Shown here piece by piece: positions 13,194 to 45,667 of a stretch of 64,000 nucleotides of DNA. Position 1 is the stretch's first letter; every line of letters starts with the position of its first letter. The notes beneath the pieces were generated by a model. The model saw only the letters and a list, made by a program, of their open reading frames with translations. It had not been told where the DNA came from and did not search any database. The stretch lies in the IMG/VR virus record IMGVR_UViG_3300049740_000832. The stretch is one strand, 5' to 3'. The position numbers were made by a program, and so were the translations under genes. The stretch comes from a virus.

Positions 13194-13221
13194 GGGAGAC
13201 CTTCGGGTCTCCCTTTTTTTT
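13194..13221 (+). terminator. Intrinsic terminator after gp23
   Basis: GGGAGACC-TTCG-GGTCTCCC plus T8 (cUUCGg tetraloop typical of T4-like phages). Confidence 0.92.
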
Positions 13222-13271: not shown

Positions 13272-13302
13272 AAAGTATAAGTTGAGTTGAAAGGAACTAG
13301 AA

Positions 13303-14562: not shown

Positions 14563-14636
14563 GCGGATGTAGCATAATGGTAATGCCGTAGGTTACCAAC
14601 CTACTGATGGGAGTTCGATTCTCTCCGTCCGCTCCA
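14563..14636 (+). tRNA. tRNA-Gly, anticodon ACC
   Basis: Full cloverleaf: GCGGATG/CGTCCGC acceptor, U73, encoded CCA, GCAT/ATGC D-stem, GTAGG-TTACCAA-CCTAC anticodon arm, GGGAG-TTCGATT-CTCTC T-arm. Confidence 0.92.
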
Positions 14637-23440: not shown

Positions 23441-25162
23441 ATGATTAACTTTGAAAAATTAAGATTCAAAAACTTTTTGTCAACAGGTAATAACCTTACT
23501 GAGATTGACTTTGATGTGTCACCTACCACTTTGGTAGTGGGACATAATGGTGCGGGTAAATCGACTATGTTGGATGCTTTGTCATTCGGTCTATTTGGTA
23601 AACCTCATCGTAAAATTTCTAAACCTCAACTCGTCAACAGTATTAATCAAAAGGGTCTGTTGGTCGAAGTGGAGTTTAGAATTGGTTCACAGAAGTATAA
23701 GGTTGTCCGTGGTATCAAACCTAACAAGTTTGAAATCTGGGTCAATGGAAATATGGTGAATCAAAATTCTCATGCACGAGAATATCAACTCATGCTTGAG
23801 AATAATATTATCAAGTTGAACCATAAGTCCTTTCATCAAATCGTGGTTCTTGGGTCTTCATCCTTTGTGCCGTTCATGCAACTTACCTCTCAAGCGAGGC
23901 GTGAAGTGATTGAAGACTTACTTGATATCAATGTGTTCAGTAAGATGAACGGATTGTTAAAGGAACGAATGTCTATCCTGAAAGACCAGATTGGTGATAA
24001 CGGTCACAAGTTGAGTATTGTCGAGACTAAAATTAATTCGCAGAAGAAATATCTTCGTGACTTGAGTTCAATAACTGCCCAGCAGAAGAAAGAAAAACTC
24101 GACACCATCAAATCTTTACAGGAAGACATTCGTGTCCTGAACGAGAAGAACGAGGAAATGACAAATGATATCACGGAGAAGTCCCCCTGTGTCATCGAGG
24201 GAACAGCTAAGGTATCTTCGGACATTACCTCTCTTGACAAATACATGGCGCAGTTCAAGACCCAACAGAAAGAAGTTGTCAAACAGGCAAAGTTCTTTGA
24301 GGATAATGATATCTGTCCGACCTGTTCACAAGAGATTGATGATAAAACCAAGAACTATCATCTTGACAGGTGCAAGACCAAAGCAGGGACTATCAAGAAT
24401 GCACTCGACATGGGTGACCTACAGAGAAAAGAATTTCTGGGGAAACAAGAAGCCCTCCAAGTCCAGATGGATTGCCTACGGGAATGGCAATCAAAGGTTA
24501 ACGCTAATAATCAAGAGATTAGGGCAATCAATCGGACAATCGATGGAATTAACGATGAACTGGTCAATCTCAACGAGGAAACTGGCGACCTCACAGAAGC
24601 GAACACTGAACTCGAAAACCTTCGCGTAGAGAAAGAAGGTCTGCAAGATGATAAGTATCGATTAAACGAACAGAATTCATATCATCGCATCAGTGCAGAG
24701 TTGTTGAAGGATACTGGTATCAAGACCAAGATTATCAAACAGTATCTACCTGTCATCAATAATCTGACCAATCAGTATCTACAGACTTTGGACTTCTTCG
24801 TTCACTTTGATTTGGATGAAAGTTTCACCGAAACAATTCGGTCACGACATCGTGACGCATTCTCCTATGACTCATTCAGTGAGGGAGAGAAACAACGTAT
24901 CGACTTATCGTTACTATTTACTTGGAGACAGATTGCCAAGATGAAGAATAGTGTTGCAACAAATCTTCTTATTCTTGACGAGACCTTTGACTCATCCCTT
25001 GATGAAGAGGGTATCGAGAACCTGATGAAGATTATCGCAAGTCTGGGTGAGGACACAAATGTGTTTGTCATCTCTCACAAATCTGAACTGGAAGACGCAG
25101 CATTCCAACGCAGACTGGAGTTCGTGAAAGAAAAGAACTTCTCCAAGTTAAAAGCTGCTTGA
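23441..25162 (+). CDS. gp46: Recombination ATPase subunit (gp46, Rad50-like)
   Basis: GHNGAGKS, CPTC hook, FSEGEKQRIDL, LILDE, ISH. Confidence 0.97.
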   Translation: MINFEKLRFKNFLSTGNNLTEIDFDVSPTTLVVGHNGAGKSTMLDALSFGLFGKPHRKISKPQLVNSINQKGLLVEVEFRIGSQKYKVVRGIKPNKFEIWVNGNMVNQNSHAREYQLMLENNIIKLNHKSFHQIVVLGSSSFVPFMQLTSQARREVIEDLLDINVFSKMNGLLKERMSILKDQIGDNGHKLSIVETKINSQKKYLRDLSSITAQQKKEKLDTIKSLQEDIRVLNEKNEEMTNDITEKSPCVIEGTAKVSSDITSLDKYMAQFKTQQKEVVKQAKFFEDNDICPTCSQEIDDKTKNYHLDRCKTKAGTIKNALDMGDLQRKEFLGKQEALQVQMDCLREWQSKVNANNQEIRAINRTIDGINDELVNLNEETGDLTEANTELENLRVEKEGLQDDKYRLNEQNSYHRISAELLKDTGIKTKIIKQYLPVINNLTNQYLQTLDFFVHFDLDESFTETIRSRHRDAFSYDSFSEGEKQRIDLSLLFTWRQIAKMKNSVATNLLILDETFDSSLDEEGIENLMKIIASLGEDTNVFVISHKSELEDAAFQRRLEFVKEKNFSKLKAA

Positions 25163-25217
25163 CAATCCTATCAGGATGTAGTATAATACACTTTATAAAT
25201 TAGAAAAGGAATTTATT

Positions 25218-25895
25218 ATGGAACTAACAGATACCACGTTGCAAGTATTGAAGAACTATGCAACAATCAATCCTAATATCGTAATCACAGAAGGTAGCGT
25301 TATCAAGACTATTTCAGTCGCTCGTAATGTTCTATCTACTGCACAACTCAATGAAGAGTTTCCGCAAGGTTTTGGAATCTATGACTTGAATGAGTTTCTG
25401 AATGTTCTATCATTGGTTGACTCTCCTCGTCTTTCATTTGAAAAAGACTATGTTGTAGTCGGTGACTCTACTGGTCGTTCCTCTGTGAAGTATTTTTTCT
25501 CTGACCCAGAGATGTTGACATCACCTGGCAAGGATATCAATATGCCAGAACCAGAGGTTAAGTTTACCCTAGATACTGATACGTTGGGTAAAGTCAAACG
25601 TGCGGCCGCTGCATTGGGTCATGAAGAGATTTCTATTACCCCAACAACTGGTGCAATCCGTTTGTCTGTTGTAGACAGTAAGGATGCAACATCTAATGCA
25701 TTCTCTATCGAGGTAGAGGGTGACTATCCAGAAGGGGTTGACTTCAACTTTATTCTGAATGTTGGTAATGTGAAAGTTGTCAACGAAGACTTTGAGGTTG
25801 GGATTTCCTCTAAATTAATCTCACAATTTACGAGTAAACAATCTGCGATTGAATACTTTATTGCACTTGAAAAATCATCAACTTACGGAGCATAA
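25218..25895 (+). CDS. gp45: Sliding clamp (gp45)
   Basis: LKNYATIN, FGIYDLNEFL, YFIALE; preceded by TTGACA-N17-TATAAT. Confidence 0.95.
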   Translation: MELTDTTLQVLKNYATINPNIVITEGSVIKTISVARNVLSTAQLNEEFPQGFGIYDLNEFLNVLSLVDSPRLSFEKDYVVVGDSTGRSSVKYFFSDPEMLTSPGKDINMPEPEVKFTLDTDTLGKVKRAAAALGHEEISITPTTGAIRLSVVDSKDATSNAFSIEVEGDYPEGVDFNFILNVGNVKVVNEDFEVGISSKLISQFTSKQSAIEYFIALEKSSTYGA

Positions 25896-26116
25896 TGATG
25901 GCAAAAGCACAGAAAGACAATACTGCAATTTATGAACTAGGCAATCGCGTTTCTCGTTCAACCGTTGCGGTTATTGATACAGTAGTTCAACGAGGCGGTT
26001 TCAAAGGTGAGGAGCTCTCTACCATTGGTCAACTTCGCGACCAAGCAGTTCAAATTATCCAAATCTGCGAAGAGTATCAATCTGAACAAGGTGTCGAAGA
26101 AGATACCAAAGAGTAA
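25895..26116 (+). CDS. Conserved hypothetical protein
   Basis: 73 aa; IDTVVQRGGFKGEEL motif. Confidence 0.75.
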   Translation: MMAKAQKDNTAIYELGNRVSRSTVAVIDTVVQRGGFKGEELSTIGQLRDQAVQIIQICEEYQSEQGVEEDTKE

Positions 26117-26186
26117 GTCTGGCGTCCTCCTTTCCGCCGACTTGGGGTGGGGTGTGCGTCTCCTTTCCGCGCATCCCACCTTTTTC
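26115..26186 (+). ncRNA. Candidate cuckoo-like small RNA: two hairpins with anti-SD loops, ending in a terminator
   Basis: AAGTCTGGCG-TCCTCCTTTC-CGCCGACTT and GGTGGGGTGTGCG-TCTCCTTTC-CGCGCATCCCACC-TTTTT. Confidence 0.65.
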
Positions 26187-26215
26187 TTGACATATCACCT
26201 CTGATGTGATATACT
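26187..26215 (+). promoter_or_regulatory. Sigma70-like promoter (gp44)
   Basis: TTGACA-N17-TATACT. Confidence 0.8.
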
Positions 26216-26237
26216 TATTTTTTATTATGGAGAATGT

Positions 26238-27176
26238 ATGAGTAATGAATTTCTGTGGGTTGAGAAGTATCGACCTCAAACTATTCAAGAAACAATCCTA
26301 CCAGATGACCTGAAAGAAACCTTTCAGAAGATTATTGACTCTGGTGAGATACCCAACATGTTATTCACGGGGACTGCGGGTCTGGGTAAGACCACAGTTG
26401 CTCGTGCAATCTGTAACGAACTGGGTCTGGACTATATTGTAATCAATGGTTCAGAAGAAGGTAACATCGACACCCTGCGTGGTAAGATTAAACAGTTCGC
26501 ATCGTCTGTCTCTCTATCAGGTGGATACAAAGTTGTCATCCTTGACGAGGCAGACTACCTCAATCCTCAATCTACACAACCCGCCCTGCGTGGGTTCATC
26601 GAAGAGTTCTCACAGAACTGTCGGTTCATTCTGACATGTAACTTCAAGAACCGTGTCATCGAACCCCTACACTCACGGTGCGGTGTGTATGAGTTCAATG
26701 TGAAGACCAACAAAGACCGTGCGACTCTGGGACAACAGTTCTTTCAACGGTGTCGTGACATCCTTCGTAAAGAAGAGATTGAGTTCAATAGTAAGACCGT
26801 TGCCAATCTGGTAATGAAACACTTCCCTGATTTTCGTAGGGGTCTGAACGAACTGCAACGGGGTAGTATCGGTGGTAGTATCACTACTGATATCATCGTT
26901 GAGGACAACAGTAAATATACTGACCTATATAAAAACTTGAAGGAAAAAGACTTCAAAAAAATGCGTCAGTGGGTCGTGAATAATATCGACCTTGAACCCG
27001 CATCAATCTTCCGTGGTGTATATGACAGTGTGGAAGGTAATGTCAAACCAGAGAGTGTGCCGCAACTTATTCTTATTCTTGCTGATTATCAATACAAGAA
27101 TGCGTTTGTTGCAGACCACGAACTGAATTTAGTAGCGTGTCTTACAGAATGTATGGCAAATGTGGAGTATGTGTAA
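26238..27176 (+). CDS. gp44: Clamp loader large subunit (gp44)
   Basis: WVEKYRP, GTAGLGKT, DEAD, SRC. Confidence 0.97.
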   Translation: MSNEFLWVEKYRPQTIQETILPDDLKETFQKIIDSGEIPNMLFTGTAGLGKTTVARAICNELGLDYIVINGSEEGNIDTLRGKIKQFASSVSLSGGYKVVILDEADYLNPQSTQPALRGFIEEFSQNCRFILTCNFKNRVIEPLHSRCGVYEFNVKTNKDRATLGQQFFQRCRDILRKEEIEFNSKTVANLVMKHFPDFRRGLNELQRGSIGGSITTDIIVEDNSKYTDLYKNLKEKDFKKMRQWVVNNIDLEPASIFRGVYDSVEGNVKPESVPQLILILADYQYKNAFVADHELNLVACLTECMANVEYV

Positions 27177-28284: not shown

Positions 28285-28653
28285 ATGAATCCCTTTGATT
28301 ATGTAAATTCGATAAACTATACAAAGAAAGATGTGATGGAAGACGAGAAGACCTATAATGGGTTTATGGTCAACCGCAGTCTTTCTTACTTTCCTGATAC
28401 TGTTGTTCTCGCAAATGAGATGAACAAATATCACCACCTAGACAACCGTCTACAATATCAATTTCTTATAAATATAGTTAGGAAACGGAAACGTTTTTCC
28501 AAATGGGTAAAACCTGAATTAGAAAATGACCTTGAGTTGGTGAAGGAATACTATGGCTATAGTAATGAAAAAGCAAGACAAGTCTTGTCACTCCTATCAC
28601 CTTCTCAATTACAAACAATAAGAGAAAAGGTGAATAAAGGTGGAAGAAAGTAA
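28285..28653 (+). CDS. gp62: Clamp loader small subunit (gp62)
   Basis: PFDYVNSIN, NRSLSYF.D, RKRKRFSKW, YYGYS.EKA. Confidence 0.93.
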   Translation: MNPFDYVNSINYTKKDVMEDEKTYNGFMVNRSLSYFPDTVVLANEMNKYHHLDNRLQYQFLINIVRKRKRFSKWVKPELENDLELVKEYYGYSNEKARQVLSLLSPSQLQTIREKVNKGGRK

Positions 28654-29050
28654 ATTAGCATCATGGAGTCCTGTGAACATGTTAGAGATTACTCTGGCAG
28701 AACCCGATGACTTCCTCAAAGTTCGTGAAACTCTGACCCGCATCGGCGTTGCATCACGCAAAGAAAATAAACTATTTCAATCATGTCATATACTCCATAA
28801 ACAAGGACGATACTATATTGTCCACTTCAAAGAATTGTTTATGCTTGATGGTAAGAAAGCAAACCTAGAACAGTCTGATGTTGAGAGACGTAATACTATC
28901 GCAACGTTATTGTCAGATTGGGGTTTAGTAGAAATTCAAAATAAAGAAGTTGCACAAGACTGTGCGCCTCTTCGTCAAATCAAGATTATTGGTTACAAAG
29001 ATAAAGACCAGTGGGAACTATGTCCAAAATACAACATTGGAAACAAATAG
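28640..29050 (+). CDS. regA: Translational repressor RegA
   Basis: DDFLKVRETLTRIG, QSCHILHKQG.YYIVHFKELF. Confidence 0.96.
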   Translation: MEESKLASWSPVNMLEITLAEPDDFLKVRETLTRIGVASRKENKLFQSCHILHKQGRYYIVHFKELFMLDGKKANLEQSDVERRNTIATLLSDWGLVEIQNKEVAQDCAPLRQIKIIGYKDKDQWELCPKYNIGNK

Positions 29051-44230: not shown

Positions 44231-44414
44231 AAAATCCAAACCTATGGGTGACGGAAACCTGATGAAGACTATGTTGTTCTTCAAGGCATGTAAAGAAGTT
44301 CTTGAAGAGTATGGTCATGATGATGCTGCATTCTACTTTGAACAGTTAGAAACGCACATGCGAGATGGTGGCACTCTTGACCAGAACAAAGCGGGAAATA
44401 TTCTTGGAGTATAA
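44208..44414 (+). CDS. Small hypothetical protein
   Basis: MSNQRAAKK...; AGGAG RBS. Confidence 0.6.
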   Translation: MSNQRAAKKSKPMGDGNLMKTMLFFKACKEVLEEYGHDDAAFYFEQLETHMRDGGTLDQNKAGNILGV

Positions 44415-44417
44415 ATA
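44410..44417 (+). promoter_or_regulatory. Late promoter TATAAATA upstream of tmRNA
   Basis: Exact consensus. Confidence 0.75.
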
Positions 44418-44423
44418 ATGGTG

Positions 44424-44716
44424 TTAATTCATAGATTTTTATCGTATTCGTTGAAGCAAACTGAAAGATAGACTGGACGGGGGTGCGATACCCCCCGCCT
44501 CCACCAAACCCCCTCTGAGGGGGCGAAATAGGTTCGACAGGTATCAAGTAGGAATGTGGAGAATAGGTGCGGAAGCCACCTGTGAGTCGGACGGGCAATC
44601 CCATCCGCAAGAGCGCAACAAACTCGTAAGTGCAAACGATAATTACGCACATGAGGATTACGCCCTCGCGGCATAATCTTCGGGGTCAGGGGACGCCTAG
44701 CAACAGAAGTCCCCAC
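44424..44716 (+). ncRNA. ssrA: Two-piece (circularly permuted) tmRNA; tag (A)ANDNYAHEDYALAA
   Basis: Acceptor 3' end ...GGGGGTGCGATACCCCCCGCCTCCACCA (to 44506) precedes the 5' GGGGGCGAAATAGGTTCGAC (from 44519). G3:U70 pair. Tag ORF 44632-44676. Ends approximate. Confidence 0.93.
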
Positions 44717-44735
44717 TTTTATATTAGGAGATATC

Positions 44736-45590: not shown

Positions 45591-45667
45591 CGGGGTTTAG
45601 CACAGTCTGGTAGTGCGCTCGCTTTGGGAGCGAGAGGTCGGAAGTTCGAATCTTCCAACCCCGACCA
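45591..45667 (+). tRNA. tRNA-Pro, anticodon TGG
   Basis: CGGGGTT/AACCCCG acceptor, A73, CCA; CTCGC-TTTGGGA-GCGAG; GGAAG-TTCGAAT-CTTCC. Confidence 0.95.

Follow-up and report, generated by a model that had tools for sequence, protein, structure and literature searches.

Between the sliding clamp gene gp45 and the clamp-loader gene gp44 of an uncultured marine T4-like phage, two adjacent hairpins present the same pyrimidine-rich word in their loops, and the locus raises the question of whether this word has a function of its own or belongs to an ordinary transcription terminator. The stretch of DNA analysed (64 kb, hereafter the window) is part of the phage genome and has a G+C content of 40.7%. 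On its plus strand the genes for a gp46-like SbcC subunit, gp45, a 73-aa open reading frame (ORF73), gp44, gp62 and RegA follow one another in this order. An earlier note had described the hairpins as an RNA derived from a 3' UTR that displays an anti-Shine-Dalgarno word in both loops, and had proposed that it masks strong Shine-Dalgarno (SD) sequences, so shutting off translation of the host or of early phage genes. The features of the locus are the following.

23441-25162, plus strand: gene for the gp46-like SbcC subunit
25159-25187, plus strand: Sigma-70 promoter of gp45, driving the gp45-ORF73 unit; TTGACA-17-TATAAT, 12/12 consensus match
25194-25201, plus strand: T4-late-promoter-like TATAAATT, just 5' of gp45, read from the sequence
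25205-25210, plus strand: SD of gp45, AAAGGA, complementing 6 nt of the loop core
25218-25895, plus strand: gp45 sliding clamp gene (PHROG 223, E = 4e-71)
25895-26116, plus strand: ORF73, 73 aa, encoding a small, strongly conserved protein predicted to be an alpha-hairpin; its stop codon adjoins hairpin 1
26117-26141, plus strand: hairpin 1, stem of 7 bp and one bulged U, with UCCUCCUUUC as its loop (26125-26134)
26144-26182, plus strand: hairpin 2, the terminator stem, 15 bp including G-U pairs; loop UCUCCUUUC at 26159-26167; supported by folding, covariation and a covariance-model match of 58.6 bits
26181-26185, plus strand: U-run of the predicted intrinsic terminator, read from the sequence
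26187-26215, plus strand: Sigma-70 promoter of gp44, TTGACA-17-TATACT, near-consensus; position conserved in relatives
26229-26233, plus strand: SD of gp44, GGAGA, inside the clade-wide conserved UUAUUAUGGAGA
26238-27176, plus strand: gp44 clamp-loader gene (PHROG 168, E = 6e-120)
28285-28653, plus strand: gp62
28640-29050, plus strand: RegA

Two hairpins at the end of the clamp transcription unit

The twin hairpins 3' of ORF73, the second followed by a U-run, were confirmed by sequence and by folding, and they lie where the gp45-ORF73 transcription unit ends, in agreement with the 3'-UTR placement proposed for them. Directly 3' of the ORF73 TAA, hairpin 1 reads GTC-T-GGCG, TCCTCCTTTC and CGCC-GAC, and is followed by TTGG and then by the 15-bp stem of hairpin 2, in which 26144-26158 are paired with 26168-26182 around TCTCCTTTC and which runs into the T-run at 26181-26185. 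The TTGACA of the gp44 promoter begins 5 nt past this stem, and the layout is equal in relatives. The fold of the whole twin-hairpin stretch reaches -37 kcal/mol (z = -4.4); hairpin 2 alone reaches -26.1 kcal/mol (z = -6.4, with 0/200 shuffles as good), and hairpin 1 alone is weak or marginal (-7.0 kcal/mol, z = -2.0). As many of the stem pairs in the homologue alignment are G-U pairs, and as hairpin 2 folds less stably, by 7.7 kcal/mol, on the minus strand than on the plus strand, the evidence points to plus-strand RNA as the functional form, and not to a DNA cruciform or a minus-strand RNA.

The description of the two stems as unrelated in sequence holds for the lower stems, which differ, and not for the tips, where both hairpins have apical GCG/CGC pairs in common; because of these shared pairs, the tips look as if a module of roughly 16 nt had been duplicated locally. 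Within the 64 kb, CTCCTTTC is present in two copies only, both in these loops, 33 nt apart and on one strand, the expectation being about 2.2 occurrences over both strands of the whole window. Among the hairpins of the window, a loop with the pyrimidine word is confined to this element. The word matches the 3' tail of 16S rRNA, which we take to read CCUCCUUUC, this being the general bacterial tail, which may not be that of the host.

ORF73, immediately upstream, has 28 invariant columns in 20 sequences that are 71-96% identical to the window copy, and is more conserved than the adjoining clamp, with gp45 identity at the same loci descending to 65%. Its AlphaFold model is a confident two-helix alpha-hairpin (pLDDT 86). 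No Pfam match was obtained for the protein at E<=10 and no PDB match for the model at E<=0.001, the Atlas search returned viral hypothetical proteins only, and neither profile nor structure searches produced a match to an RNA-binding family. Among GenBank phages, ORF73 was identified in C48C1 and, as a weak match, in Atu_ph07, and in no others. It occurs both with and without the motif, and is therefore not tied to it.

Conservation and replacement of the loop in related phages

A search of IMG/VR with the ORF73 protein gave approximately 590 related stretches, of which the best 80 per search were fetched, and two extra locus scans with the ORF73 of plain-terminator lineages returned mostly the same contigs again. 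Among these best 80 per search, 29 distinct motif-bearing variants were found downstream of ORF73. In 12 of them (type A, the type of the window) both loops carry the motif, and in the remaining 17 (type B) it is restricted to hairpin 2, the loop of hairpin 1 being variable and often pyrimidine-rich. The claim that the motif occupies both loops thus stands for the window and type A and not for type B.

Conservation of the loop in related phages had been set beforehand as the test on which the earlier reading would stand or fall. The core UCCUUUC is unchanged in 29/29 distinct motif-bearing variants and in 12/12 lineages with a second motif loop, far beyond what neutrality would leave, and no C-to-U change was seen within it. 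The residue preceding the core is C or U, the loops are 8-10 nt long, and they read UCCUCCUUUC, UCUCCUUUC, UUCCUUUC, UUUCCUUUC or UUCUCCUUUC; the conserved word is UCCUUUC and not the CCUCC core. The stems that carry it are far more variable, with 16 different versions of hairpin 2 among the 29 variants. Across 23 distinct homologous sequences, 90.9% of the pair cells are standard as against 76% in shuffles (0/500 of which reach the observed value), double-sided changes occur in 6/10 stem pairs, and slid controls reach 50-68% pairing, so the covariation check suggested for homologous gp45-gp44 regions upholds the stem.

At the third codon positions of gp45, these taxa are 52-61% identical to the window, and the gp45 third-position tree of 40 distinct sequences has a length of 8.3 substitutions per site. 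On such a tree, seven neutral sites would have gathered roughly 58 changes, and none was observed over the seven loop positions; the tree ignores recombination, which makes the neutral figure rough, but the contrast is large. By this measure, the UCCUUUC loop is clearly under purifying selection. In type B, the U-run is split from the stem by GAA, AAA or GAAC, and in one lineage (L017) it consists of UUU only; this spacer between stem and U-run argues that the type-B hairpin may be retained for more than termination.

A covariance model was built from the hairpin 2 homologues and searched in the window and in five related records. The window gave one strong match, with hairpin 1 next at 13.9 bits, and each of the five records, including a complete 149-kb genome, likewise gave one strong match; the weak extra matches were ordinary UUCG-tetraloop terminators. 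In the genomes examined the element is single-copy, and it lies at the ORF73/gp44 junction every time. The few other terminator-like hairpins of the window mostly have small loops, including UUCG and GUAA tetraloops. The standard terminator of this phage group, GGGAGAC-UUCG-GUCUCCC with a U-run (window 13194-13213; also L089, L090 and L091), is near-identical in several relatives and often lies near a TTGACA promoter, in the manner of the PeSL cassettes considered below.

Plain small-loop terminators occupy the same slot at least three times in lineages nested among the motif-bearing ones on the gp45 tree. Given at least three such replacements, the motif loop is dispensable yet strongly selected where present. 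Among distant relatives without the motif (L070-L083), the region downstream of ORF73 holds either another long hairpin or a GACAGAGG...CCTCTGTC hairpin, and these hairpins directly precede a gp44 start that has no GGAG SD. Searches of GenBank phages for DNA similar to the element, whether closely or remotely, found no match: the equivalent slot of phage C48C1 contains a different sequence together with a tRNA and an extra ORF, and in HTVC008M gp45 and gp44 are adjacent, with neither ORF73 nor a hairpin between them. Viral contigs with two copies of CTCCTTTC 18-40 nt apart had hairpins only in this clade among the matches listed, in a scan whose output consisted largely of repeats and of ribosome-binding sites on the reverse strand and which is uninformative on other contexts.

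The surroundings of the element contain several further signals. The perfect Sigma-70 promoter of gp45 is followed, 6 nt on, by TATAAATT, which is near the T4 late-promoter word (25159-25201) and is kept near gp45 in many type-B relatives; TATAAATT would represent a late promoter of gp45, and its combination with the Sigma-70 promoter suggests that the clamp gene is transcribed both early and late. The spacer of the gp44 promoter is palindromic (ATATCAC...GTGATAT, 26193-26213), and in type-B relatives (L004 and others) a conserved inverted repeat, GTTTCATA ... TATGAAAC, flanks the -10 box downstream of ORF73; both may be operator-like sites. The starts of gp45 and gp44 alike are preceded or overlapped by UUAUUAUGGA (25211-25222 and 26221-26233), which is conserved clade-wide and resembles the A+U-rich RegA operators of T4, RegA itself being encoded at 28640-29050. 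A mini-ORF of four codons, ATG GAG AAT GTA TGA (26227-26241), holds the gp44 SD, and its stop codon overlaps the gp44 ATG; it is retained in several type-A relatives and absent in type B, and for this reason is probably incidental.

Elsewhere in the window, a permuted alpha-type tmRNA (Rfam, 110.9 and 100.8 bits) and two tRNAs were identified (sites 44373-44717, 14563-14633 and 45591-45664); tmRNA and curli genes are traits of pelagimyophage/Melnitz-like phages (PMC9004378). The best gp45 match, in phage C48C1, is 56% identical, the HTVC008M protein is 45% identical, and judged by these identities the group has no close cultured phage.

Candidate functions of the selected loop

Hairpin 2 of the window has the anatomy of an intrinsic (Rho-independent) terminator, a 15-bp GC-rich stem followed by UUUUU, and from this anatomy it would terminate transcription, with a good fit in type A. 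The explanation that we prefer, tentatively and at somewhat less than an even chance, is that the element is a terminator/promoter cassette whose loops serve as anti-SD pairing elements. The hairpins would end the gp45-ORF73 transcript, with the gp44 unit restarting immediately afterwards, and the exposed loop would anneal to purine-rich SDs of the GAAAGGA or GGAGA type in competition with 30S subunits. It could act while still part of the gp45 mRNA or, once the mRNA body has decayed, in a 3' fragment that resists nucleases, and its candidate targets would be the gp45 SD in cis, other phage genes or host mRNAs. Since the loop word is the terminal part of the 16S 3' tail, SD pairing would be the natural mechanism, and since the loop is kept by selection, it probably pairs with ribosome-binding sites. 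That the invariant part excludes the CCUCC core counts against SD pairing.

The search for targets within the window qualifies this explanation. The GAAAGGA SD sites at 13289, 13560, 13858 and 43736, to which the earlier note had drawn attention, do exist; the masking of strong SDs that it proposed found no support in the window, which yielded generic SDs as complementary sites and neither a specific target nor an early-gene tag. SDs of the AAAGGA type precede 9/91 window genes, in promoter contexts that are mixed or unassigned, and no SD tag private to early genes was found among these 91 genes. When all start regions of the window were ranked thermodynamically, no outlier appeared among the neighbouring genes: the gp45 SD, AAAGGA, pairs with the loop over 6 bp only and ranks 38/92, and the gp44 start region ranks 23/92. 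No 11-mer complement of the loop beyond chance was present in the window, the extended complement GGAAAGGAGAC with <=2 mismatches gave 23 matches there against 16.6 expected, none of them notable, and GGAG followed by A showed no enrichment in ribosome-binding sites over background. It is conceivable, at long odds, that the abundant phages of this clade equip their clamp mRNA, itself transcribed at a high level, with a copy of the 16S 3' tail that acts globally, soaking up strong SD leaders or titrating a tail-binding factor (e.g. bS21) and so reprogramming initiation by the host ribosome.

Recognition of the loop by a protein is the main rival and a serious one, if on the whole unlikely; UCCUUUC, displayed on an arbitrary stem, would be recognized by an RNA-binding protein of phage or host, which would tune termination versus read-through into gp44-gp62-regA, or gp45 mRNA stability. 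Hairpin operators classically show just this combination of an unchanging loop and stems free to vary, and the type-B and L017 hairpins, which look poor as unaided terminators, are conserved nonetheless. The absence of wobble-tolerated C-to-U changes in the core also bears on the choice, as with respect to this observation protein recognition fits at least as well as pairing. RNA operators are known in T4-type replication genes (PMC3014915), but those of RegA are A+U-rich and unstructured, unlike the UCCUUUC loop, and RegA (28640-29050) was rejected as the binder on these grounds. Against this reading, no candidate protein was identified, and ORF73 is found with and without the motif and matches no RNA-binding family.

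Considerably less probable is a contact within the gp45 mRNA, as in icaR, in which base pairing of the 3' loop with the SD at the 5' end of that transcript would control how much clamp is made or how long the mRNA lasts. In all motif-bearing lineages, an unbroken run of 6 or more bases in a loop is complementary to the gp45 SD, rising to 8 bp for GAGAGGAA with UUCCUUUC when one G-U is counted, and the gp45 SDs of three plain-terminator lineages lack the GG core. However, complementarity of an SD to an anti-SD word is expected anyway, the rank of the gp45 SD in the window is just 38/92, and the SD and the loop show no covariation across lineages. Moreover, L293, whose strong gp45 SD is that of its motif-bearing relatives, has an ordinary terminator, the L213/L289/L292 group retains good gp45 SDs with plain terminators, and L017 and L026 have GGAA SDs alongside CUCC loops.

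A decoy role of the loop directed at a factor that binds the 16S 3' tail (bS21, for example), and not at mRNAs, is very doubtful. The loop presumably copies the terminal 16S word, and the type-B relatives G002 and G004 encode a bS21 homologue (50.9 bits against a cut-off of 27) in a 96-aa ORF, at G002:C1:26416-26571 (L203) and G004:C1:25890-26045 (L202). The bS21 gene is about 17 kb from the hairpin, however, and neither the window nor the 87%-complete type-A relative G003 has one. The view that the element is only a terminator and 3'-end protector in which the loop word plays no separate part, or that its function is exercised in DNA, agrees with the standard arrangement of GC-rich stem, U-run and promoter and with the ability of plain terminators to substitute, but has very little probability in the face of some 58 neutral substitutions expected over seven loop positions and none seen, of the tetraloops used by the other terminators, and, for the DNA variant, of the G-U pairs that favour plus-strand RNA over a cruciform.

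Comparison with known systems

The closest parallels in architecture are the cuckoo/CcsR/alpha-r14 RNAs (NfeR1) of Alphaproteobacteria, which likewise have adjacent hairpins with variable stems and one anti-SD-like pyrimidine word per loop; the arrangement of two to four such hairpins is seen in the window and the 12 type-A variants, type B having one motif hairpin. The Rhodobacter cuckoo/CcsR RNAs are located in the 3' UTR of a gene for a protein of about 71 aa with which they are co-transcribed, and their hairpin loops carry CCUCCUCCC (PMC4615179, PMC8034643); here, similarly, the hairpins follow an ORF of 73 aa. In contrast to these RNAs, the loop word is (Y)UCCUUUC and not CCUCCUCCC, the last hairpin doubles as the terminator, just one hairpin bears the motif in many relatives, and the carrier is a phage and the element known here from sequence alone. 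No Rfam model matched the site at the gathering score, and none matched 25900-26400 even at E<=10, leaving the suggested kinship with cuckoo, CcsR and alpha-r14 without a match. A DUF1127 neighbour, a trait of the CIN1 subgroup, is likewise missing: ORF73 has no Pfam match at E<=10, and PF06568 is absent from the five related records at E<=10. Membership in this family was rejected on the loop word, the Rfam models and the DUF1127 neighbour, and ORF73 was rejected as an analogue of CcaF1/DUF1127, its model being a generic alpha-hairpin and no Pfam/HMM match being found.

As in the PeSL cassettes of T4-type phages, a stem-loop abuts a near-consensus Sigma-70 early promoter, and the unit is exchangeable, with plain versions filling the same slot in relatives (PMC2839356, PMC4122927). 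PeSLs have small loops and are present in each genome as numerous similar copies within hyperplastic regions (PMC2839356, PMC4122927), whereas the present element is single-copy, is fixed between the core genes gp45 and gp44, and has a selected loop of 9-10 nt in the window. The icaR 3' UTR of Staphylococcus aureus also contains a pyrimidine anti-SD word able to pair with the SD of its own mRNA, but there the motif UCCCCUG pairs with a matching UAGGGGG (PMC3868564), whereas the match of the UCCUUUC loop to the gp45 SD is a generic one of 6-8 bp that does not covary. The UCCC loop motif of RNAIII is comparable in that C/U-rich hairpin loops were proposed to seed pairing with ribosome-binding sites (PMC4615179); RNAIII-type RNAs are independent sRNA genes of Firmicutes with a different motif.

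If the loops do act as anti-SD elements, this would be a compact form of phage control over translation initiation, exerted through the terminator of an abundant mRNA in a group that comprises hundreds of marine contigs and has no close cultured representative. Whatever the mechanism, the element is a well-supported conserved RNA motif absent from Rfam, with stems that covary, a loop that does not change and a constant position in the genome. Set beside the systems above, the motif itself is new and its general kind, an RNA with anti-SD-like loops, is known, and the element shows that PeSL-like cassettes of terminator and promoter can take on a further function under selection.
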